From: a virus
IMG/VR virus record: IMGVR_UViG_3300035670_000145
Coordinates: 1 to 64,000 of that record
Length of the DNA stretch: 64,000 nt
Direction: 5' to 3' (one strand)
Shown here: positions 1,984 through 36,463 of the stretch, one piece after another
Numbering within the stretch: the stretch's first letter is position 1
Layout: each line of letters begins with the position of its first letter
Made by a program: the position numbers and the translations under genes
The notes under the pieces: model-generated
The model's database searches: none
Seen by the model: the letters and a program-made list of their open reading frames with translations, nothing else
Told to the model about the DNA's origin: nothing

Positions 1984-4968
1984 TCAATAAAGACCATCGT
2001 CAGCAGTGCCAATGCTCATAATGCCAGTGCCAGATGCTATGACAATTTCCGAAGATCCCCTGACAGTGCCAGTAGATCCGCTAGTTGCAATTTGCACGCG
2101 AGCCCATACAAGTTCGTTCAAATCTTCTTGAGTGGCCACGCCAGACGCAACAGGGACAAGAGCAGAGCCGTCAACAAGCACGTCTTGATCGCCAACGCCA
2201 GCCACTGCACTGCTGAGGTTTACTTTGGTCCATGTGGAGCCAATGCCCTGCGACAGCACCCAGTTGCCAACTGTCAAGGCTTCATTGGGAGCGGGCGTGG
2301 TGCCTACGCCGCTGCTGGTGACAATTAGATAGAGACCGTTGCTGCTGGTATTCGGAGACGAAAGAGCTTGTCCAACGGTTAAGCCAGCTTCAATGCCATA
2401 GCTATTAATGCTTTCAACGACATTGCCAGAAGCGTTGTAAGTGCCACCAAAGCGTAAGTTGATTTGAGTGGGGCTACCGTAACCAAGATTAAGCCAGTAA
2501 CCGTTTGGCACTGGTGTTACTTCTCCCACCCAGATATAAGCAGACCTATCGTTAGGATTAATCCACCATTGCCCCGCAAATTCTGGAACAGGAGCGCTTT
2601 CACTTACTTGCGCAATACCATAGTCTGCCAATTGCGCAGCGGTGACGCTATTTTCAGCAAGAAATGTGCTACTAAATGTGCCAGTGGTAATCTTGCTAGC
2701 ATCTAAATTTGGAATATCAGAAGCGGAAAGCGTGGACTGCGCTGTGACAATATGACCCTGTGCGTCAATGGTTATTGGCCCTGCATAGGTGCCAGCAATC
2801 GCACTGTTGCTATGATTCAAGGCGCCAGCAGCGCTTACGCTTAAGCCAGCGCCAGGGGTGACGGCTCCAACGCCAGTGGCAGTAGCAATGGGGAGGTCTG
2901 CTGGAACAAGACCCCTGAACGTGGGACTTGTCGATGCTCCAGTGGATGGCCCAGCAAAAACAGTATTTGCAACTTGTGAATCAAGCGTGGTGGTAATCGT
3001 GGCTGAATAAGCGTCTGGATAGCTAACAACAAATGCAATGGGAGTGGAATCAGTAAAGGCAATAGAATTAATCGTTGCCTGCCTGTTCCACGCAGCCCCG
3101 TCCCATGTATATTCAAAGTCAGTAGAACTATCGAACCATTGCTGCCCAATAAAAACGCCGTTGCCGACAGGGGCGTTAGCTTGAACGACGACAACAGAGC
3201 TGTTAGAAACTTTTTCTGCTGTTAGGCCGCTAGCGGCCAGTTGAGCGCTACCAACTGCACCATTTGCAATCTTGTCTGCAGTAATGGCATCATCTGCAAT
3301 GTCAGCAGTGGCGATGGAGGAAGCAGCATACTTACCTGCTCCAATAGTTGAGTTTGCAATTTTAGCGTTTGTAACAACTCCGTCCGCTAAATTGCTGGTA
3401 ATAATGCCTTCAGCAGCAATTTGCAGACCGCTAATTGTTGAGCTTGTAATTTTAGAGCCTGGAACGCTTCCATCGGCAAGATTGAGCTTGCCATAAGCTA
3501 TTGTTGAGTCTGCAATTTTGTCATTTGTTACCGCTAGCGCTCCTAGAGCAGAGGTATCAACTGCACCAGCGAGAAACTTGGTGGATGTAATGCCACTTGC
3601 GGCCAGTGCTGCAGTGCCAACCGCTTCGGCTGCAATTTTAGAGCCAGTGACCGCCGCAGAGGCAATAGTTACTTCCGTAACTGCGCTTGCGGCTATTTTC
3701 CCTGCCGTCACTCCGCTGGCTGCTAGCTTGTCTGCCGTGACAGCTCCATCAGCAATTGCGGCCGTGCCCACTGCCGAGGAAGCTAGTTGCAGCCCGCTAA
3801 TCGTGGCACTGGCAATCTTAGATCCAGGCACGCTACCATCAGCCAAATTGAGTTTGGCATAGGCAATAGTGGCATTGGCAATCTTGTCATTAGTGACCGC
3901 GCCAGTGCCAAGCTTGGCTTCCGTAACGGCGCCCAGGCCAATCTTTGCCTCAGTGACAGCACTGTTAACGATGGCGGCCGTATCCACGGCGTCGTTAGCA
4001 AGCTCAGCGGCGCCCACAGCGTCGCTAGCAATGGCATCAGCGGTGACAGAGTCTGTGGCCAACTGCGCAGCAGTGACGGCGTCGTCAGCAATTTTTGCAG
4101 TGGTAACTGCATCGTCAATTAGCTCAGCCGTGCCCACAGAGCCGGTGCCCATCTGAGCGGCTGTAATTGACTCGGCTGTAATTTTTGAGCCGGGAACACT
4201 ACCATCTGCCAAGTTTAATTTGGCATAGGCAATAGTAGCGTCCGCAATTTTATCGTTTGTTACTGCATTAGACGCAATGGCAACAGTATTAACGGCACCG
4301 GCAGAGAATTTAATGGAAGTGATGCCACTCGTGGCTAGCGCTGCAGTTCCAACCGATTCTGCTGCCAGCTTCGTGCCGTCTACAGCAGCAAGAGCAATCT
4401 TGGGGCCAGTAATTGCACCATCGGCTATCTTAGAAGTGGTGACATTTGCGTCGACAATTTTGATTGTCGTGATTGCATTGGTTGCAATGCCTGCTGCGGT
4501 CAAACCCCCGCTTTGAATTTTGCCGTCAGTAATTGCATTGTTTGCAATTTTTGCAGTGGAAACGGCCAGGTCCGCAATGCCTGCAGTTGGCATGACCACT
4601 TGCTGATAGTCACCATTGGAAAAAATTTGCAAATTTCCATTAGTGCTGCTATACCAGCCTCGTCCCGTAAAATTATCCGCAGTAGGAGCTGTTGACTGGG
4701 CCGCAATAGAGCTATTGGCAGCCAGCTTACTTGCGACAATTGCAGCCGAGTCAATGGCTACTGTTCCAAGCTTGACGGTGCTATCTTGATTAAGCTTTGA
4801 GAGATCAATACTGCCGCTTGCAGTGAGAGCTATGCCATTCTGCAGGAATTGCGTGGTGCGAATTTTCTTTGTTTCACTTGCACTAACATCAACAATGGCC
4901 AGCAGATCGCCAGAACCTAAAGACGAACCTAGAAGTTCGTTAAGCTGCGAAATAGTTTGATCGGCCAT
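1984..4968 (-). CDS. Long tail fibre / repeat-rich virion protein (994 aa)
   Basis: Dozens of ~10-aa (A/S)VTxxK(I/L)A repeats; MADQTISQL N-terminus; lies downstream of tail-tip genes. Confidence 0.85.
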   Translation of the reverse strand: MADQTISQLNELLGSSLGSGDLLAIVDVSASETKKIRTTQFLQNGIALTASGSIDLSKLNQDSTVKLGTVAIDSAAIVASKLAANSSIAAQSTAPTADNFTGRGWYSSTNGNLQIFSNGDYQQVVMPTAGIADLAVSTAKIANNAITDGKIQSGGLTAAGIATNAITTIKIVDANVTTSKIADGAITGPKIALAAVDGTKLAAESVGTAALATSGITSIKFSAGAVNTVAIASNAVTNDKIADATIAYAKLNLADGSVPGSKITAESITAAQMGTGSVGTAELIDDAVTTAKIADDAVTAAQLATDSVTADAIASDAVGAAELANDAVDTAAIVNSAVTEAKIGLGAVTEAKLGTGAVTNDKIANATIAYAKLNLADGSVPGSKIASATISGLQLASSAVGTAAIADGAVTADKLAASGVTAGKIAASAVTEVTIASAAVTGSKIAAEAVGTAALAASGITSTKFLAGAVDTSALGALAVTNDKIADSTIAYGKLNLADGSVPGSKITSSTISGLQIAAEGIITSNLADGVVTNAKIANSTIGAGKYAASSIATADIADDAITADKIANGAVGSAQLAASGLTAEKVSNSSVVVVQANAPVGNGVFIGQQWFDSSTDFEYTWDGAAWNRQATINSIAFTDSTPIAFVVSYPDAYSATITTTLDSQVANTVFAGPSTGASTSPTFRGLVPADLPIATATGVGAVTPGAGLSVSAAGALNHSNSAIAGTYAGPITIDAQGHIVTAQSTLSASDIPNLDASKITTGTFSSTFLAENSVTAAQLADYGIAQVSESAPVPEFAGQWWINPNDRSAYIWVGEVTPVPNGYWLNLGYGSPTQINLRFGGTYNASGNVVESINSYGIEAGLTVGQALSSPNTSSNGLYLIVTSSGVGTTPAPNEALTVGNWVLSQGIGSTWTKVNLSSAVAGVGDQDVLVDGSALVPVASGVATQEDLNELVWARVQIATSGSTGTVRGSSEIVIASGTGIMSIGTADDGLY

Positions 4969-29260: not shown

Positions 29261-29938
29261 CTATACAGGCACTGTTGGCGCTTGCTGTCTGTAATAACGA
29301 ACACTACAGCGGCACCTTGCCCCGCACTCGCAACGCTGGCCGGGAAGAGGAAGTGTACCAATGGACACTATTCCCTGGTCTGCATATCTGAGGCAGTCCT
29401 CGCAATGCTGGGCCTGGCTGTCCAAAATGCGTCGCATGAGACTATATCCTTGTCGCTGCTGCCGAAGTTCGGCACCCTGCCAGTAAGATCCGCGAACGCT
29501 TTGAGCATATAAGCCAATGCGAGCCAGAGCCATGGGAGCAGAAAGGCGATTGCTAAGCAAGTCGGAAACAAAACGTTGGAGATAAGCATATTCCTCGCGA
29601 AGGCGCTGACCGATGCGGCCGTATTCCGCACTGCCCATGCCGGCTCGACCACCATGGCCCACAATTGCTGCCTGAATATGAGCAGCCTTAAGCAATTCGC
29701 GGATACTCCCCTGCCACTGATCAAGCGTGATGGATCCATTGATCAACATGCGCGTAAAGCGCCGTAAACTTGCGTCCAGTTTATCAATGCGCTTGTCCAC
29801 AAGCTTTTCGATCGACGCTTTACTAAGGAACCGCCCCTTTTCGTCGCGATAACGACCGCTGTTCTGGTCATAAGACCATTCAGCGTCCATCCTGCTGGAC
29901 AGAATAGTTTCACTGAAGCTTTCGATATTATTCAGCAT
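29261..29938 (-). CDS. Head morphogenesis / minor capsid protein
   Basis: Follows portal; HCEDC...LPG..CECGARCRC. Confidence 0.75.
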   Translation of the reverse strand: MLNNIESFSETILSSRMDAEWSYDQNSGRYRDEKGRFLSKASIEKLVDKRIDKLDASLRRFTRMLINGSITLDQWQGSIRELLKAAHIQAAIVGHGGRAGMGSAEYGRIGQRLREEYAYLQRFVSDLLSNRLSAPMALARIGLYAQSVRGSYWQGAELRQQRQGYSLMRRILDSQAQHCEDCLRYADQGIVSIGTLPLPGQRCECGARCRCSVRYYRQQAPTVPV

Positions 29939-32000
29939 TATCAGCTTCTAGTAGGTCCTTAAATTTTTCGGGAGCCTCTTCCTTCCATTGCTGCAGTGCT
30001 GCGTCAACGTCCGCCTCGCTAATAAAAGCAGCCTCGTCAATGCCTCCAAGCATTAGCCCTTCCACTTGCACGGGCTCAATCGCATCCACTTTGCTGCTGA
30101 CCATTTTTGCTGGCCCTTTTCGATCTGGATTAGGGTCGGACTTGCGCTTGCGGGCCACAATTGTCTGCCGCTCCTCTTTGCTCATGGCTTTAGCTTTTGC
30201 CTTGGGCAAGCACTTTGGCTTTCCTTCTCTCTCTTCGCGCCCTCCACATTCACCAAGAATTTCTCCGTTAGCGCCAATCCTCACCCATTCTTCCTTGAAC
30301 CATTTATCAAGATCATCGTGGTTCACGTCGCCATTATCCCCCTTAAAGCCACTGCCGCCACCGTGCTTTTTCTTATAGAGTTCTTTGTACTTCTGCACCA
30401 TGTAGGCGCTGGCATAAGCACTAGGCCACACCTTGAATTTTGACTTGGCGGCGGCAATTGCTTGCTGATGCAGGTCTTTGTCTTTGAACTGCACATCGCC
30501 CCGCACTTTTTCGAGGTCACGAGGCAAGAACAATCCTGCGGCGTCTTCTACTTCCCTGCTTCCATCCATTGGCAAGGTGCCGTTCTCTTCGTTCATGGGA
30601 TCGCGTCCGCCAGGAGGCACGGCCAATCCACTCGCTTTCTGAGTGGAACCACCCCCTCCCTGAGTAGGAAGCTCGCGCACCACAGACGGATCGAGAGTAA
30701 GCTCCATCGACCACTCGGAGCCGCCGTAACGTGCGTCGGCCACCTCTTTGGGGCTCAGTACTCCGAGCTGAATGTAGCGCCCGTCTACGGCCGCCACGCG
30801 AGCCCTCACGTCGGCTTTCTCTCTTTCGTTCAGCTCGAACAAATCGTTGAATTTGATGCGCCACGATTCCGGCACTCGCCCATTCGTCGGTCCAGTCTTG
30901 CTAAGCATGATGTAGGTCATCAGCTTTTTAAGGGGACGATGGAAAGTGGATTGTTGGTAGTCGGCTAGCGTCTTAGCGAAATCTCTCTCTTCGCTTCGCC
31001 CAGTAGAGCCAAGGCCGCTGGGGCTTTCACCAAACAAAACTGTATGGGGAATTTTTGATGCGCCAATAATATCAACGCGAGTTTTTTCTAAGATTTCACC
31101 AACTCCGCCAAAGTTCCTACTGATAAAAGCAAGCTCTTCCTTCTCAGCGTCAATCGCATAGCCACGATAAACACTTTTGCTCATGTCGTTAAGGACAAGA
31201 CGATCTCTCACGTCTTTTTCTTTGCCTGCAGCAAGCATTTGTGCTAGGCCACGAATTTTGTGGACAAAAATATCAAACTCACTCAACAGGGTGGCGGCGC
31301 TATTCAATCCAGTCCAATAGTGCTTAAAGCTTTCATAGACAGTCTGTAAACTGCTCATTCCCCATCCATAGTTCCTCTGCCTAATCCGATAAGGAAGCCA
31401 ATCGCCATCAAAACGCAAAATCCTGTCTTTATGGATGTAGGTGAGTTGCGGCTGCCGAATCAAATCGCCGGAAATAATTTGATAGTAAGTTGCTTTGGAG
31501 TAGTCGTACAGATTTTCTTCATTGATCACTGGTGCAATTTGCCAGCGATCCAGCACTTCCATTCCTTCCACGGAATAAATGCGGCTTCTGTCAACTGGCT
31601 GATCTGCTGGCCTGCCGTCATCAATGTACAAAAGAATTACGGCCCCTCCATAAAGCCTCGAATTTTTAGAGGCAAGCATAAAGTTTTCAAGGATATACAA
31701 ATCTTCAATCACCTGTTCAATGCCTACCACTTCTTCAGCCGCCGCTCCTTCTCCGCCAAACAACACCTTGAAGCCCCTTCTTGTGGCTTGCTCTGCATAG
31801 ATATCCACAATGCGGCGAGGCAGCCATTCGCCGTAGAGCGCTTCCAACTCTTCTTGCGCAAGAAAGATGATGGGCTGCGCTTGCGTGGATAAACTTTTGT
31901 CCCTGCCAGAGATGCCCATGCCAGTGAGGGCATTGGCAAGACCATCATTGCGCAGTCCGTCCGCAGTGGCATGCCCCAAGTCAACTGCTTCTTCCGACAT
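29928..32000 (-). CDS. Portal protein (DUF1073-like) with basic C-terminal extension
   Basis: LYGGAVI, IHKDRILRF, WGMS.L, IP.TVLFGESPSGL motifs. Confidence 0.85.
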   Translation of the reverse strand: MSEEAVDLGHATADGLRNDGLANALTGMGISGRDKSLSTQAQPIIFLAQEELEALYGEWLPRRIVDIYAEQATRRGFKVLFGGEGAAAEEVVGIEQVIEDLYILENFMLASKNSRLYGGAVILLYIDDGRPADQPVDRSRIYSVEGMEVLDRWQIAPVINEENLYDYSKATYYQIISGDLIRQPQLTYIHKDRILRFDGDWLPYRIRQRNYGWGMSSLQTVYESFKHYWTGLNSAATLLSEFDIFVHKIRGLAQMLAAGKEKDVRDRLVLNDMSKSVYRGYAIDAEKEELAFISRNFGGVGEILEKTRVDIIGASKIPHTVLFGESPSGLGSTGRSEERDFAKTLADYQQSTFHRPLKKLMTYIMLSKTGPTNGRVPESWRIKFNDLFELNEREKADVRARVAAVDGRYIQLGVLSPKEVADARYGGSEWSMELTLDPSVVRELPTQGGGGSTQKASGLAVPPGGRDPMNEENGTLPMDGSREVEDAAGLFLPRDLEKVRGDVQFKDKDLHQQAIAAAKSKFKVWPSAYASAYMVQKYKELYKKKHGGGSGFKGDNGDVNHDDLDKWFKEEWVRIGANGEILGECGGREEREGKPKCLPKAKAKAMSKEERQTIVARKRKSDPNPDRKGPAKMVSSKVDAIEPVQVEGLMLGGIDEAAFISEADVDAALQQWKEEAPEKFKDLLEADNAE

Positions 32001-32065
32001 TGTTCACACTATTGGCGTGCCTCCATTCTAAACGTGGCTATGATGGCGACGACGTTCTTTTAGTT

Positions 32066-32551
32066 ATGCCCACTCCCATTGAATTTGTCTTCTCCGAAGA
32101 GGAAAGGAAGCAGGCGATGGAGGAAGGACAACGACGCCAGTCTGTGAACGAAACGAAAGGGCTTCGAGGGCGCAATAAAGGCGCGGCCCGTGGTGATCAA
32201 GCTTTGTCTATTCACTTGCTTGGCGCCGCAGGTGAAATGGCAGTGGCATCTTTCATGGGCCTAAAGCACGAGCTTTACAAAGAAAGCGAGGCAAGGCGCG
32301 GGTCCGATGATTTGCCGGGAATTGACGTAAAAACTCGATCAAAACATTCCTACGATCTCATTGTGCAAAAGAACGAAGACCCCGGAAAAAAGTTTGTTTT
32401 GGTGACCATTGAAAACCAAAAAACTTTCATTCATGGCTGGTGCTACGGAAAGGAAGCAATGGAGGAACGATTCTGGGCCGATCCCGCGAGAGGTAGGCCA
32501 GCTTATTTTGTTCCTAAAGAACAGCTTCGCCCCATGTCAACTTTGCAATGA
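32066..32551 (+). CDS. Putative PD-(D/E)xK-like nuclease
   Basis: GAAGEMAVA...DL...IDVKT; overlaps terL start (ATGA). Confidence 0.5.
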   Translation: MPTPIEFVFSEEERKQAMEEGQRRQSVNETKGLRGRNKGAARGDQALSIHLLGAAGEMAVASFMGLKHELYKESEARRGSDDLPGIDVKTRSKHSYDLIVQKNEDPGKKFVLVTIENQKTFIHGWCYGKEAMEERFWADPARGRPAYFVPKEQLRPMSTLQ

Positions 32552-33930
32552 GCAGTTCTCTCAAATGCAGCGACTTTGCCAGGCATGTATTAAAGCTTGA
32601 GCTTTGGCCTGAGCAAAAGCGCATTCTTGACGGCTACTTTGGCGGCAACAAAACTCATGCCGTGTGGGCGCTTGGGCGACGCTGCGGCAAAACGCTTATG
32701 GCCGCTATTGCAGCCCTGTACGCCTGCTTTGTCTTGGAAGATCAATACAGAAGGCGCGTGCGAAAAACGGAAAAGTGGTACATTCTTACCATTGCAAACG
32801 ATCAAAGCCAGGCAAAGCTAGCGCTCAATAATATTCGCCAGCTTCTAATGGACAGTCCTCTTGTTGATGAAATCACAAGAGAAACTGCCACTGAAATTGA
32901 AACTAGTAATAATTGCGTGTTCCAAGCCATTCCTGCATCGGCCCGCGCTTCTCGTGGTAAGGCCGTGGTGATGTTAATCATGGACGAGCTTTCCTTTGCT
33001 ATTGAAGGCGATGCCAACCGTGGCGCAAAAGCCATCTACGATGCGCTTTCCCCTTCCATTGCACAGTTCGGGCAGCACGGACGCATCCTTGAACTATCTT
33101 CTCCATGGCTCACCGATGGCCTGTTCTATCAGCACTATTGCGAGGCAAAATCTGGAGAGTTTCCCTTTATGCAGGCAGTGAATCTCCCAACTTGGGAGGT
33201 GAATGTTAATTTGCCATGGGGATGTGCATTCCTTGACGCTGAACTAAAACGTGATCCCGATAAGTTCTGGGTGGAATATGGAGCTCAGTTTGCTAAAAAC
33301 AATTCAGCACTATTGGCCACTGAAATTGTCGAAGCTGCCATAAGCAAGGAGCGGGGAGTACTGTTTCCCGAGAAAGAATTTACTGGCACTTATGTGCTTT
33401 CCCTGGACCCCGCCCGAGGCGGTGTGGGACGAGACGATTACACCGCTTGCATTGTTCATTATGAGGGCGAAAGGCTAGTGGTGGACAAGTTTCACGCCTT
33501 CGAACCAGACTTTGAAATTGGTGGCAAGAAAGAAGTGAACATGGCGAAAGTGGAAGAGTGGATCAAGGAACACCATCGCATTTATGAGTTTCAAAGTATC
33601 GTGCTTGACCAATTCAATAGCAGCTTTATCATTCAGAATCTTTCTAAGGATTTTCCTATTGCAGAATTAGCCTGGTCAGTTAGCACAAAAATGAAAGCCT
33701 TCAGCAAAATGAAAGAGCTCTTTAATGCTGGCTTAATTGAACTTTATCCTCACCAAAAAGCAATCACTCAGCTTAAAAATTTGAGCGTTATTTATAGAGC
33801 AAGCGGACAATGGGCCGTCACTGGAGGAAAGGAAGTGGGGGTTGATGACTATGCGTTCGCACTTGCGGCGGCGATTCTTGAGGCATCCAAGGATAATGAC
33901 ATCGACTGGTTGAATAGTCTTGTTCGATAA
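32548..33930 (+). CDS. terL: Terminase large subunit
   Basis: Walker A GRRCGKT; Walker B LIMDE; LSSP coupling motif; nuclease LDPA...DD. Confidence 0.92.
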   Translation: MSSSLKCSDFARHVLKLELWPEQKRILDGYFGGNKTHAVWALGRRCGKTLMAAIAALYACFVLEDQYRRRVRKTEKWYILTIANDQSQAKLALNNIRQLLMDSPLVDEITRETATEIETSNNCVFQAIPASARASRGKAVVMLIMDELSFAIEGDANRGAKAIYDALSPSIAQFGQHGRILELSSPWLTDGLFYQHYCEAKSGEFPFMQAVNLPTWEVNVNLPWGCAFLDAELKRDPDKFWVEYGAQFAKNNSALLATEIVEAAISKERGVLFPEKEFTGTYVLSLDPARGGVGRDDYTACIVHYEGERLVVDKFHAFEPDFEIGGKKEVNMAKVEEWIKEHHRIYEFQSIVLDQFNSSFIIQNLSKDFPIAELAWSVSTKMKAFSKMKELFNAGLIELYPHQKAITQLKNLSVIYRASGQWAVTGGKEVGVDDYAFALAAAILEASKDNDIDWLNSLVR

Positions 33931-33980
33931 TTACGCTTAGAATTTTCAGCAATTGCTGAAACTTTCACTTTTTTTGAAAA

Positions 33981-34157
33981 ATGATTGGTATTGAAATTTC
34001 TAGCAAGGAGCTAGCCTTTTTACTAGCGCTCCTGGAGGCCGACAGGCAAACGGCGCTTCAGCTTCTTGCCGCCGAGCATGCTTATAAGCCCACGCTACTG
34101 CCAAAACTGCGAGAGGCAGAGAAAGTTGTTAAAGCAATGAAAAATTTGGAAGGATAG
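33981..34157 (+). CDS. Hypothetical 58-aa protein (not in ORF track)
   Basis: MIGIEISSKELAFLLALLEADRQ...; TAGAAT -10 upstream. Confidence 0.55.
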   Translation: MIGIEISSKELAFLLALLEADRQTALQLLAAEHAYKPTLLPKLREAEKVVKAMKNLEG

Positions 34158-34182
34158 ACTAAACACATTCCTCCTCTTTGCC

Positions 34183-34398
34183 ATGGCATCGTCCTTCACC
34201 GCAGAAGAAGCCCTTGCTTGGGCCATGAAGGCTGCAGAAGCCGTAGAAGAAGCTGGCAAAAGCTTTGGCCCCATGAGCGAAGAATCGCGGCTCGCAAGGG
34301 CTGCTTTTGAGCATCTCATGGACGATTATCGCGAGCATTGGAGCAATGCCTGCGAAAGCCGGTTTGGCCATCAAGGATGCAAAGAATACGACGTGTGA
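34183..34398 (+). CDS. Hypothetical protein
   Basis: ORF ending CKEYDV. Confidence 0.6.
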   Translation: MASSFTAEEALAWAMKAAEAVEEAGKSFGPMSEESRLARAAFEHLMDDYREHWSNACESRFGHQGCKEYDV

Positions 34399-34419
34399 GC
34401 AATGGTTTGCTTGTGCTAC

Positions 34420-34751
34420 AGCCTCCATGGCCAGCGGCATGAAATCAGAGTGCCATTTCACGAAGCGCGTTTTGTCAATAAGCGTTTGTTCCTGGAGGGA
34501 GCCGCCGTGTACTGGACCTTTCTCTGTTAAGCTTTCAAAGCTTCCTGCAGGAGCCCGTTGGCCAACGGCTTGCCAGTATCCTCGTCAATGCTGGCATCAT
34601 CGTGGATTCCGTTCACTGTCTTAAGTGAGTTGAAGCACTTAAGACGCTTGGCAGAATGTCAGGGCCGCACCCTGTTTATTTCCTGATGCGGAAACATTCT
34701 GCCGCTTGTCTCTTCTGATGATGAAAGCTGGTTTGATTCCAGCAGGAGACC
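34420..34751 (+). ncRNA. Candidate multi-hairpin ncRNA ending in a tRNA-like acceptor/T-arm minihelix
   Basis: Stems at 34618-27/34636-45 and 34650-59/34694-703; GTCTCTT/AGGAGAC plus GCTGG-TTTGATT-CCAGC at 34708-34750. Confidence 0.55.
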
Positions 34752-34756
34752 TTTCG

Positions 34757-34969
34757 CTATTTATTTCTGTGCCCAGCTTCTTCCGTTGCGTGAATGTAGG
34801 TTTTTAGCTCACGCACATATTGTCTGAGCAAGGCGGCCTTCTCCAGATGCCAAGGATCACGATGGAGAAAGTAAAGCTCCATGTGGTTGTCAATGGCTTT
34901 TAGGCAATTGTGAATAGGCGCGTTCCATTGCGAACGAACTGGCGTATCAAACGTCCGACGCTCGTCCAT
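34757..34969 (-). CDS. Hypothetical protein
   Basis: WNAPIHNCLKAIDNH motif seen in cyanophage small ORFs. Confidence 0.65.
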   Translation of the reverse strand: MDERRTFDTPVRSQWNAPIHNCLKAIDNHMELYFLHRDPWHLEKAALLRQYVRELKTYIHATEEAGHRNK

Positions 34970-35507
34970 TGGCCTTGAAATAAGCCTTGATGTCCTCTAA
35001 TGCTACCGGCTCAAAATCGTTTCTTTCTAAACAGGCATTGAAATAACGCCCGTCTACTTCCCCATCGTCCGTCAATACAAGATGACAATGGAGATGGCCG
35101 TGGACGTTGCCAAGATAATGCCCCTGCAAAATACTGGGATGCACTGGAATGTGCGTGAAGATTAGACCTCCCGGCATGGTGCTATCACCCCCACGAAAAA
35201 ATGCTCCTCGAATGTCTTCAAAATACGGAAGATAATCTTGAATTTTGTAAATATCATGATTCCCTTTGACGAGAATCTTCTTCCCATTGAAACGATTGAG
35301 AAGCTGCAGACCACTTCTGGGAATTGCCACGTCGCCCAAAATGTAAACGCGATCTTTCTCGTGGATCTTTTTGTTCCAACGCTCAATGAGCGTTTCGTGC
35401 ATTTCTTCAATGGAGGAGAAAGGACGAAGGGGTTCTCCGTCGGGACGCACGAAATCCAGCATCTTGGCATGGCCGAGGTGCAAATCTGATGTGACAAAAG
35501 CGCTCAT
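34947..35507 (-). CDS. Calcineurin-like metallophosphoesterase
   Basis: SDLHLGH, LGD, GNHD, THIP, HGHLH. Confidence 0.9.
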   Translation of the reverse strand: MSAFVTSDLHLGHAKMLDFVRPDGEPLRPFSSIEEMHETLIERWNKKIHEKDRVYILGDVAIPRSGLQLLNRFNGKKILVKGNHDIYKIQDYLPYFEDIRGAFFRGGDSTMPGGLIFTHIPVHPSILQGHYLGNVHGHLHCHLVLTDDGEVDGRYFNACLERNDFEPVALEDIKAYFKANGRASDV

Positions 35508-35512
35508 AGTAA

Positions 35513-35713
35513 TCAGTGCTTTTCGTAAACTACTTTTCTTTGCACGGGATCAGGACGATCTTCCAGCTCATGCAAAAGATCAAGAGCCTGATCAAATGTG
35601 CTAAACCAGCCCCTCTCGTCCCAGATGAAAGGACAGATGCGCTCTTGTACTTCGTAGAGCGGCTCCCATGGATGCACGGCGCTTGGACGTTGAACAATGC
35701 GAAATCGCGCCAC
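35513..35713 (-). CDS. Hypothetical protein
   Basis: RFRIVQR...YEVQER ORF in operon. Confidence 0.6.
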   Translation of the reverse strand: MARFRIVQRPSAVHPWEPLYEVQERICPFIWDERGWFSTFDQALDLLHELEDRPDPVQRKVVYEKH

Positions 35714-35760
35714 AGCAAAATTTAGAAGGCAAGCCTTAGTTTAGTACGGTTCGGAAGAAA

Positions 35761-35830
35761 GGGCTCCTCCAGGAATCGAACCCGGCATTCCAGGCTATCT
35801 GCCTGACGTGTAAACCAACACCAAGGAGCA
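35761..35830 (-). tRNA. Degenerate tRNA-like element (anticodon position GAT, Ile-like)
   Basis: Acceptor GCTCCT/AGGAGC; D-arm GTGT/ACAC; anticodon stem TCAGG/CCTGG with loop CAGATAG; T-arm CCGGG-TTCGATT-CCTGG; A33 and 1:72 mismatch are non-canonical. Confidence 0.65.
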
Positions 35831-35831
35831 A

Positions 35832-35947
35832 GTGACCCCCAGGTTTGAGCATCGTTGAGAGGCTTAGGGGGTGTTAAACGATGGAGCAAGCGTGAGGGTC
35901 ATCCGGGATTTGCCCCCAGTGACGCACAGAGGCTTGCCCGCCGTCGC
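35832..35947 (-). ncRNA. manA-like structured RNA motif
   Basis: GCGACGG..GGGCAAGC/GCTTGCTC stem; CATCGTT/AACGATG crossing ACCCCC/GGGGGT (pseudoknot); ends GGGTCACT abutting a tRNA; extended -10 TGcTATAGT upstream; family recalled from memory. Confidence 0.6.
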
Positions 35948-35953
35948 TTGATA

Positions 35954-36463
35954 CTATAGCACCACTCTCGGCCGCAAGCCAAGGCGCACCCTGTTCTCCT
36001 CAATGCTTTCTCCGACAGATCTGCCTATTAAATACATTGCCGCGTCAAATAATGTATTTGCATCATCTTTTGCGTTGCCAAGCATTAAGTTACAGGAGCC
36101 GCATAAAATTCCTCTGACATGATTTAATGAATGGCAGTGATCCACGACAAAATTTCCGCTTGCGTGATTTGGCTCTGTAGTGCCACAAATTGCACAGCAA
36201 TAATTCTGCTTGGCGAATAATTCATTCCACTGTTCAACGGTCATTCCATAATTAATCTTCAAGCTTTGCGCCCTGGATTTTTGAGCGCAATATTTCTCCT
36301 TTTGCCTTTTAAGTACATCCTCTTTTCTCTGCTCATAGCTAGAAGATGCGGCGGTTTTTGTGCATAATCTGCACCTTGCAGTAAGGCCGTCTTTTACTCT
36401 TTTTTCCTTGTAAAAATCGCTAGCCTGCTTAAGCTCACCACACATGACGCATTGTTTTTTCAT
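35954..36463 (-). CDS. Endonuclease VII-like (His-Me) homing endonuclease
   Basis: N-terminal CxxC...CxxC; Q..CCAIC...VDHCH...VRGILC..CN. Confidence 0.85.
   Translation of the reverse strand: MKKQCVMCGELKQASDFYKEKRVKDGLTARCRLCTKTAASSSYEQRKEDVLKRQKEKYCAQKSRAQSLKINYGMTVEQWNELFAKQNYCCAICGTTEPNHASGNFVVDHCHSLNHVRGILCGSCNLMLGNAKDDANTLFDAAMYLIGRSVGESIEENRVRLGLRPRVVL

Follow-up and report, generated by a model that had tools for sequence, protein, structure and literature searches.

Behind the terminase genes of this cyanophage lies a structured RNA of about 175 nucleotides (nt), which is encoded on the plus strand at 34531-34706 and is followed by a 44-nt minihelix, the remnant of a tRNA gene. Covariation among related phages demonstrates both the structure and the strand of the RNA. 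On the same comparative evidence, the RNA represents an uncatalogued, strongly conserved family of freshwater cyanophages, and its 3' neighbor is positionally homologous to a tRNA. The preferred reading, to which a probability slightly above one half (about 0.55) is assigned, is that the RNA is an autonomous phage small RNA (sRNA) whose 3' end would be set by an RNase P cut at the tRNA-remnant minihelix.

Genomic setting

The window, i.e. the whole stretch of 64,000 nt that was analyzed, comprises positions 1-64,000 of a 73.8-kb linear cyanosiphovirus record, the sole named nucleotide relative of which is Synechococcus siphovirus S-CBS4. The RNA locus is situated directly downstream of the terS-like and terL genes, with the portal gene nearby, and faces a converging block of genes on the other strand:

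29928-32000, minus: portal
32000-32551, plus: phrog_18407 gene
32548-33930, plus: large terminase
33981-34157 and 34183-34398, plus: small ORFs
34402-34530, plus: gene of a 42-aa protein (MVCLCYSLHGQRHEIRVPFHEARFVNKRLFLEGAAVYWTFLC), a conserved ORF outside the RNA
34525-34534, plus: TGYTAWGMTT motif, seen in alignments; immediately 5' of the RNA and overlapping the stop of the 42-aa ORF
34531-34706, plus: structured RNA core
34708-34751, plus: minihelix
34757-34969, minus: converging 70-aa ORF
34947-35507, minus: phosphoesterase, converging block
35761-35829, minus: tRNA-Ile, converging block
35835-35871, minus: abiF RNA motif, converging block
beyond the abiF RNA motif, minus: endonuclease VII and RNR-beta genes, same converging block

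The minihelix is followed, 5 nt further on, by the stop codon of the 70-aa gene. The usual order in relatives (designated here by locus numbers) is RNA, tRNA-Leu or minihelix, glutamine-II riboswitch, and a gene starting MNKLML or MNPLAL. Neither the riboswitch nor its gene survives in the window and L002, and a search of window positions 33500-36000 found no glutamine-II riboswitch. The riboswitch itself (RF01704, 34-44 bits) was seen at L013:4160-4216 (minus), at L216:690-744 (plus) and in 10 other loci.

In three phages, L024, L016 and L011, the element, together with the pair of small genes on its left side, is 92-97% identical in DNA to that of the window (34399-34756), while their adjacent phosphoesterases are merely 70-72% identical in protein sequence to that of the window. 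This difference suggests a recombination (mosaic) boundary at the converging gap.

The small protein gene to the left of the RNA

The initial annotation described a hairpin-dense element of about 330 nt. Its right-hand part, about 220 nt, holds up as RNA and tRNA remnant, but the left third is a small protein gene and not RNA. A frame kept open with codon-type substitutions was found in 34402-34530 only, and 34531-34751 fails in this respect. The 42-aa product shows conservative replacements in all relatives, even at about 70% nucleotide identity. It has no Pfam or PHROG family, no Atlas neighbors, and no homologues outside one near-identical cluster within this phage group. Of the 20 window-type RNAs, 18 occur together with this ORF, and it is missing from the loci that carry the second type of the RNA (type-2, see below). 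Because 34402-34530 is a conserved gene, the three left-hand stems that had been proposed (CCTCCA/TGGAGG, TGAAAT/ATTTCA and GAGGGAG/CTTTCTC) lie in coding DNA; they are fully paired in 1, 7 and 10 of 18 relatives, respectively.

The motif at 34525-34534 reads TGnTATGAT or TGnTATGCT in relatives and might be taken for an extended -10 box. In L088 (6550-6585) and at the equivalent positions of L008 and L095, TTAGCA-N16-TGC-TATGCT stands directly 5' of the first hairpin of the RNA, H1, and type-2 relatives have a TGT-TATGAT version of this segment in the same place. The segment is a plausible candidate for an extended -10 promoter of the RNA. Compared with L008-type relatives, the window lineage has a 21-nt deletion here, which joins the promoter-like halves into TGTTAAGCTT, now bearing the stop codon of the 42-aa ORF. 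A promoter search in the window found no convincing candidate.

Structure of the RNA core

The core is built of the following parts:

34531-34706, plus: structured RNA core, about 175 nt, four hairpins and a three-way junction
34540-34554, plus: H1, GCUUC-CUGCA-GGAGC, 100% paired in 13 sequences
34555-34568, plus: H2, CCGUU-GGCC-AACGG, with a G-C to A-U compensatory change
34571-34596, plus: H3, 9 bp, conserved loop CCUCGUCA, compensatory changes in 4 pairs
34604-34612, plus: single-stranded GGAUUCCGU, invariant in 13 of 13 aligned members
34618-34645, plus: H4, 10 bp, conserved loop AGUUGAAG, compensatory changes in 6 of 10 pairs
34650-34703, plus: three-way junction of P1, P2 and P3, with compensatory pairs in each helix
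34650-59/34694-703, plus: P1, 3 compensatory pairs
34660-74, plus: P2, CAGGG-CCGCA-CCCUG, 3 compensatory pairs
34680-93, plus: P3, UUCC-UGAUGC-GGAA, 1 compensatory pair

The three right-hand stems of the initial annotation coincide with a 9-bp inverted repeat (34571-79/34588-96) and two perfect ones of 10 bp (34618-27/34636-45 and 34650-59/34694-703). All three covary in relatives, and so does the nested CAGGG/CCCTG hairpin, which was found exactly where it had been described. Folding of the 358-nt gap gave z = -3.1 for the plus strand and z = -2.4 for the minus strand relative to dinucleotide shuffles. In an alignment of 13 sequences (A3), in which the elements H1-H4 and P1-P3 were specified, 97.6% of 614 cells are paired and 18 of the 48 pairs have changes on both sides. 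The covariation score of 0.305, compared to 0.185 in shuffles, was reached by none of 500 shuffles, and pairing falls to 37-46% when the partners are slid by 1-3 columns. RNAalifold, applied independently, found 20 of 62 pairs to be compensatory.

The strand is given by the wobble pairs: there are 42 G-U cells on the plus strand versus 2 A-C cells, which would be G-U on the minus strand. The U-G/U-A and C-G/U-G changes of H1 are tolerated on the plus strand alone, and the several G-U pairs of H4 likewise occur on that strand only. Relatives differ by indels of 19, 4, 3 and 1 nt within 34531-34751, which excludes a reading frame in the RNA stretch.

Loops and linkers are conserved where stems vary. 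This applies to CUGCA (H1), GGCC (H2), CCUCGUCA (H3), GGAUUCCGU and AGUUGAAG (H4), and likewise to the junction loops CCGCA (P2) and UNAYGCG (P3). The CUGCA loop of H1 is present in L089 too, where the H3 stem is wholly different and its loop is kept as UCCUCGUCAC; the GGAUUCCGU linker is found in both L089 and L252. For H2, type-2 relatives have ACGCU-GGCC-AGCGU and L089 has CCUGU-GCGC-ACAGG. The loops of P2 and P3 are complementary, from GCA/UGC up to CCGCA/UGCGG. The crossing CCGCA/TGCGG pairing of the initial annotation is present as a candidate, with two of its G's shared with the covarying P3 stem; its loop bases are invariant, which places it beyond the reach of covariation. Pairing of the H3 loop with the GGAUUCCGU linker as a pseudoknot was considered and rejected, since C56 is altered in L095 and L088 with no compensating change and no spacer remains in L089.

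Distribution of the family

Rfam 15 contains no family that matches the core in the window, even at E <= 10; at 34390-34770 it gave just a 14-bit chance match (sR20). The same library, which includes pRNA, GOLLD, ROOL, YrlA and riboswitches, gave none over the homologous RNA in L013 or L089.

Eighty related phage loci were gathered using the phosphoesterase as a handle, and the element was found in 10 of them at 70-96% identity. An exact-pattern scan, built from two invariant blocks of the RNA, recovered further members in IMG/VR (L088, L095 and L089) and seven true members in 185k prokaryote genomes and metagenomes (L157, L171, L211, L216, L219, L252 and L284), all of them on phage-like or mis-binned MAG contigs. 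No copy in a cyanobacterial chromosome or other host genome was seen in the 185k-genome scan. The remaining pattern matches, including four viral ones, were judged to be due to chance.

The covariance model R1 scores 162-210 bits in 18 contigs and 58 bits (E about 1e-16) in L089 and L252, bringing the window-type RNA to 20 phage contigs, these last two with an unrelated backbone. The order in L089 is tail fibre, HNH, thymidylate synthase, the RNA and DNA polymerase I. Because this backbone differs, the RNA can be regarded as a self-contained module that is not bound to the packaging genes. In L089 (5440-5843, plus), the RNA is followed by about 400 nt of further non-coding sequence with more hairpins; the opposite strand of this stretch has a CyVA-1-like match of 21 bits, below the gathering score of 41.

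Type-2 relatives match R1 over the full length in all 19 searched, with 24-31 bits (E 1e-5 to 1e-7). Their RNAs share H1-H3, a GGG-CCNA-CCC hairpin and a hairpin with a AUUGAAGCC loop, and have a rearranged 3' domain. A type-2 RNA, recognized by its visible 5' hairpins, is present at the corresponding place in about 55 of the 80 relatives.

The tRNA-derived minihelix

The segment downstream of the core consists of the following:

34708-34751, plus: minihelix (acceptor stem and T-arm), 44 nt; 40 nt in L008-type relatives
34707/34708, plus: RNase P cut predicted from the minihelix
34708-14, plus: acceptor 5' strand GTCTCTT, pairing 7/7 with 34744-50 in the window
34715-26, plus: linker of 12 nt; 8 nt in L008-type relatives
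34727-43, plus: T stem-loop GCUGG-UUUGAUU-CCAGC, stem 34727-31/34739-43
34744-50, plus: acceptor 3' strand AGGAGAC, contiguous with the T stem
34751, plus: discriminator C

A 7-bp acceptor-like stem on a T-arm with loop TTTGATT, lacking D and anticodon arms, had been recognized at this place from the sequence of the window, and the relatives reveal where it comes from. In type-2 relatives the R1 match extends precisely up to the 5' end of a tRNA-Leu(UAA), as in L013, where the match stops at 4314 and the tRNA lies at 4315-4231. In L216, a window-type core precedes a complete tRNA(UAA) of 75 nt. The minihelix is found in the window, L002 and ten others. L030 has a terminator-like hairpin of 10 pairs with a T-rich tail in its place, directly after the RNA, and L088, L095 and L171 carry the core with neither tRNA, minihelix nor terminator. 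When the minihelix is aligned with the full tRNA-Leu(UAA) of L216 and L013 (alignment A6), a single gap corresponds to the D and anticodon arms. The flanks match on both sides, namely the P1 3' strand upstream and TGATAAGCT...ACGTT of the glutamine-II riboswitch downstream. The single gap and the common flanks identify the minihelix as an internally deleted tRNA-Leu.

The acceptor and T-arm features of the tRNA class (7 bp; 5 bp with a 7-nt UUCRANY loop) were found and the D-arm and anticodon arm were not; neither ARAGORN nor the Rfam tRNA model (RF00005) calls a tRNA on the minihelix. The T-loop is UUUGAUU in the window, with U for C56, and the canonical UUCGAUU in relatives. The T stem is 100% paired, and two of its pairs show compensation, CUGG/CCAG being replaced by CCGG/CCGG or by CUGA/UCAG. 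In the acceptor stem, pair 2:71 varies between U-A, U-G and C-G, and pair 6:67 is mismatched in 7 of 8 distinct relatives, in which 6 of 7 pairs form. The compensatory changes show the helices to be under selection, with modest statistical support: the observed values are reached by 3-4 of 500 shuffles, and the sequences are closely related. No U-tract follows the minihelix in the window, so that it does not have the form of a conserved intrinsic terminator. Features of minihelix substrates of RNase P are present, namely 7 + 5 coaxial bp, G+1:C72 and a single-stranded leader with U-1; G1:C72 occurs in all 8 distinct sequences and U at -1 in 10 of 12.

The tRNAs with a UAA anticodon found at this slot (L007, L009, L010, L020, L026-L028, L216 and others, at about 3900-4400 of the locus) are of two kinds: some measure 82-90 nt and have the long variable arm of class II, and some measure 74-76 nt and have a short arm. 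The long variable arm of class II is expected for tRNA-Leu.

Proposed origin and maturation of the RNA

The initial annotation had interpreted the minihelix as a processing tag of a novel upstream non-coding RNA, with a tRNA decoy as a conceivable alternative. The comparison fits the processing tag: the minihelix occupies the exact tRNA-Leu(UAA) slot, this slot holds a terminator-like hairpin in L030, and the minihelix helices are kept through compensatory changes. The RNA would be transcribed from the plus strand, behind the terminase operon and the 42-aa gene. It would be descended from the long structured leader that preceded a tRNA-Leu(UAA) gene of a phage. In the lineage of the window the tRNA would then have lost its D and anticodon arms, and with them its decoding capacity, and the acceptor/T-arm minihelix would have been retained since host RNase P still recognizes the remnant. 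Bacterial RNase P cleaves model substrates composed of an acceptor and a T stem-loop efficiently and at the canonical site, and several non-tRNA RNAs of phages are matured by this enzyme (PMC11143913). Cleavage at 34707/34708, as predicted from the minihelix and already put forward in the initial annotation, would produce an upstream RNA with a defined 3' end. As the stop codon of the converging 70-aa gene is only 5 nt past the minihelix, the cut would also part the RNA from read-through that is antisense to this gene. A 3' cut of the tRNA type would not be obligatory for the RNA, because L088, L095 and L171 carry the core alone.

The released RNA probably acts in trans, and a scaffold or decoy that binds protein or RNA seems likelier than a cis regulator. 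The core is kept without a downstream gene on the plus strand (window, L002 and L030), with another upstream gene (L089) and without a tRNA (L088 and L095), which argues for standalone action. A search of the window for trans targets complementary to the conserved loops found no enrichment of ACGGAATCC or GCTTCAACTC. Sequences of 9 nt that differ at no more than one position from TGACGAGGA, which is complementary to the H3 loop, number 21 in the window versus 10.2 expected, a count reached in 0 of 100 shuffles; the sites (e.g. 9990, 12750, 51829 and 62185) are mostly on the minus strand. This enrichment has no clear interpretation, because most of the sites carry a mismatch and fall in coding DNA, and it may reflect Asp-Glu codons or Shine-Dalgarno-like GAGGA.

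A further proposal, which is doubtful at present, is that the core forms a new functional class of RNA, either capturing or sensing tRNA-Leu(UAA) or acting as a pRNA-like multimer or host-protein binder through its CCGC/GCGG loops, with the minihelix purely an RNase P 'end-maker'. The RNA family is genetically linked to tRNA-Leu(UAA), and the invariant H4 loop AGUUGAAG (AUUGAAGCC in type-2) includes UUG-A, a complement of the UAA anticodon loop. Because the UAA anticodon never varies, this pairing is outside the scope of covariation and serves as a lead only.

Alternative explanations

In most relatives the RNA could belong to a composite leader, because the glutamine-II riboswitch and its gene follow. 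The RNA might be a cis-acting leader controlling the tRNA-Leu and the riboswitch gene, either a ligand- or tRNA-sensing element or a platform for processing or stability, of which the window copy would be a relic that outlived the deletion of this gene. This is unlikely. It would account for the gene order of most relatives and for a three-way junction with loops capable of kissing, which is the topology of small aptamers. The P2 hairpin, flagged by itself as terminator-like in the window together with its U-rich joiner, and the possible pairing of the UUG-A in the H4 loop with the anticodon loop would find a place in it as well. However, the U-tract after P2 is not conserved, the covarying structure is intact where the downstream strand is empty, and L089 and L252 carry the RNA in an unrelated gene context with no tRNA nearby. 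Moreover, a tRNA lying between leader and gene would be excised and the two thereby uncoupled. The start of the RNA is always within about 10-30 nt of a stop codon upstream on the same strand, and in the window, where 21 nt of the promoter-like segment are lost, no convincing promoter was found. These observations, and the stable stacked hairpins typical of 3' protectors, would also be expected if the RNA were a 3'-UTR element that shields the terminase-operon mRNA from 3' exonucleases and the minihelix were a decaying pseudogene. Such a role is rather improbable, because the conserved loops, the invariant linker and the junction with complementary loops exceed the needs of a protective hairpin, the upstream gene is different in L089, and the minihelix has compensatory changes instead of signs of decay.

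That the element works as duplex or cruciform DNA, for instance as a pac or cos site, an origin or a protein-binding site, is very improbable in spite of its place next to the terminase and portal genes and of perfect palindromes such as CCGTTGGCCAACGG. The strand asymmetry of the wobble pairs (42 versus 2) would not arise in cruciform DNA, the loops are conserved while the stems covary, and the motif also occurs within the DNA-metabolism module of another phage type. An equally slight chance is given to a hammerhead-like self-cleaving ribozyme, suggested by CUGAUG..GAAA and by GUC at 34658-34660, and to a coding function of ORFs 34307-34624 or 34558-34686. CTGATGCGGAAA and CTGATGATGAAA both occur and there is a three-way junction, but no ribozyme family of Rfam matches at E <= 10. 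The CUGAUG/GAAA words differ in relatives (CUAAUG, CUACUG, CUGGCG) and sit in a hairpin loop and in the minihelix linker, not in the junction strands, which are only 0-5 nt long and have no conserved hammerhead core. The repeated CTGATG-NN-GAAA and the GCTTG linkers, both of which had drawn attention earlier, are not conserved in relatives and are coincidences of the window lineage. Both ORFs (105 and 42 aa) are uninterrupted in the window, but the 19-, 4- and 3-nt indels of relatives break both of them; the frame that is conserved differs from that of 34307-34624, the conservation of which had been named as a refuting observation, and ends at 34530. Two other identities were rejected as well. 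A group I intron in a split tRNA-Leu would have just about 175 nt available, there is no 5' tRNA half, and Rfam gives no match. As for tmRNA, ARAGORN finds neither a tmRNA nor a tag frame, and both acceptor strands are at the 3' end.

Comparison with known RNAs

The autonomous sRNA with an end set by RNase P, which is the reading preferred here, belongs to known kinds, namely phage non-coding RNAs that share a transcript with a tRNA and are released by the enzymes of tRNA maturation, and tRNA-like end-makers such as mascRNA. Model substrates of RNase P, the C4 antisense RNA of phages P1/P7 and the M3 RNA of phi80 (PMC11143913) are similar in having a 7-bp acceptor helix on a 5-bp T stem with a 7-nt loop, G+1:C72, U-1, and the helix located 3' in a phage RNA whose end has to be formed. 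Compared with the model substrates, the minihelix has a 12-nt linker that bulges between the acceptor 5' strand and the T stem, encodes no CCA, is a demonstrable deletion derivative of a full phage tRNA gene, and its cleavage is a prediction.

In MALAT1 and MEN-beta, the tRNA-like mascRNA (RF01684) directs RNase P to form the 3' end of the non-coding RNA. A tRNA-like structure is there, too, placed just downstream of a structured non-coding RNA, and the proposed mechanism is the same, but the system belongs to eukaryotes, and in mascRNA the cloverleaf is retained, including an arm like that of the anticodon. RF01684 has a sub-threshold chance match only in the window (16 bits, at tRNA-Ile) and none on the element. 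'Species 1 and 2' of T4 are stable RNAs co-transcribed with the phage tRNA cluster, whose function was long unknown, and 3'ETS-leuZ of E. coli is an sRNA derived from a tRNA precursor. These, too, are non-tRNA RNAs freed from tRNA precursors by tRNA-processing nucleases; the RNA described here differs in being a 5' leader with its own multi-hairpin fold, and the likeness is one of description, no relation being expected. GOLLD and ROOL are phage-borne, highly structured and often found beside tRNAs, but they are 3-5 times larger and have no Rfam match to this RNA.

The phi29 pRNA, of about 120-170 nt, has a U-rich three-way junction and two loops with 4-nt complementarity. It is similar in size, junction and complementary loops, and the RNA of the window lies beside packaging genes. 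However, Rfam gives no pRNA match, the packaging genes are a classical TerL and portal instead of a phi29-type ATPase, the motif is away from packaging genes in L089, and the loop pairing may be intramolecular here. As in tmRNA, an acceptor stem and T-arm that lack an anticodon arm are attached to a larger structured RNA, but here the two acceptor strands are confined to 44 nt at the 3' end instead of flanking the RNA.

The RNA may be among the unnamed candidates of the 2023 IMG/VR survey, which comprises 10,006 csRNAs; with this caveat, both the family and the natural reduction of a tRNA to a minihelix appear to be undescribed (PMC10690425). A well-supported structured RNA family absent from Rfam 15 is thereby added to the few non-coding RNAs known from cyanophages. 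At one locus, a natural series leads from a full tRNA through an acceptor/T-arm minihelix and an intrinsic terminator to nothing, and it reveals the part of a tRNA that is kept by selection once decoding is lost. If RNase P does cleave at the predicted position, the minihelix would be a clear case of a tRNA remnant kept by a prokaryotic virus purely as an RNA-processing signal, and the defined ends and conserved loops would offer a handle on the partners of the RNA during infection of picocyanobacteria. If the minihelix is an end-maker, it would be a bacterial-virus counterpart to the MALAT1-mascRNA mechanism.

The neighboring abiF module

A module at 35761-35871 on the minus strand of the window contains an abiF RNA motif (RF03085, 55.7 bits versus a gathering score of 37), and a 69-nt tRNA-Ile(GAU)-like gene, which begins 5 nt downstream of the motif, is called by ARAGORN and is mostly below the Rfam tRNA threshold. 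The pair of motif and tRNA is conserved in relatives, in which the anticodon varies (Ile, Met, Val, Gln). RNAs of the abiF motif are antitoxins of the AbiF abortive-infection toxins (PMC12373285), and because they neutralize these toxins the phage copy could be a decoy antitoxin. The abiF motif with its tRNA-Ile is the second fusion module of a structured RNA and a tRNA in this phage.
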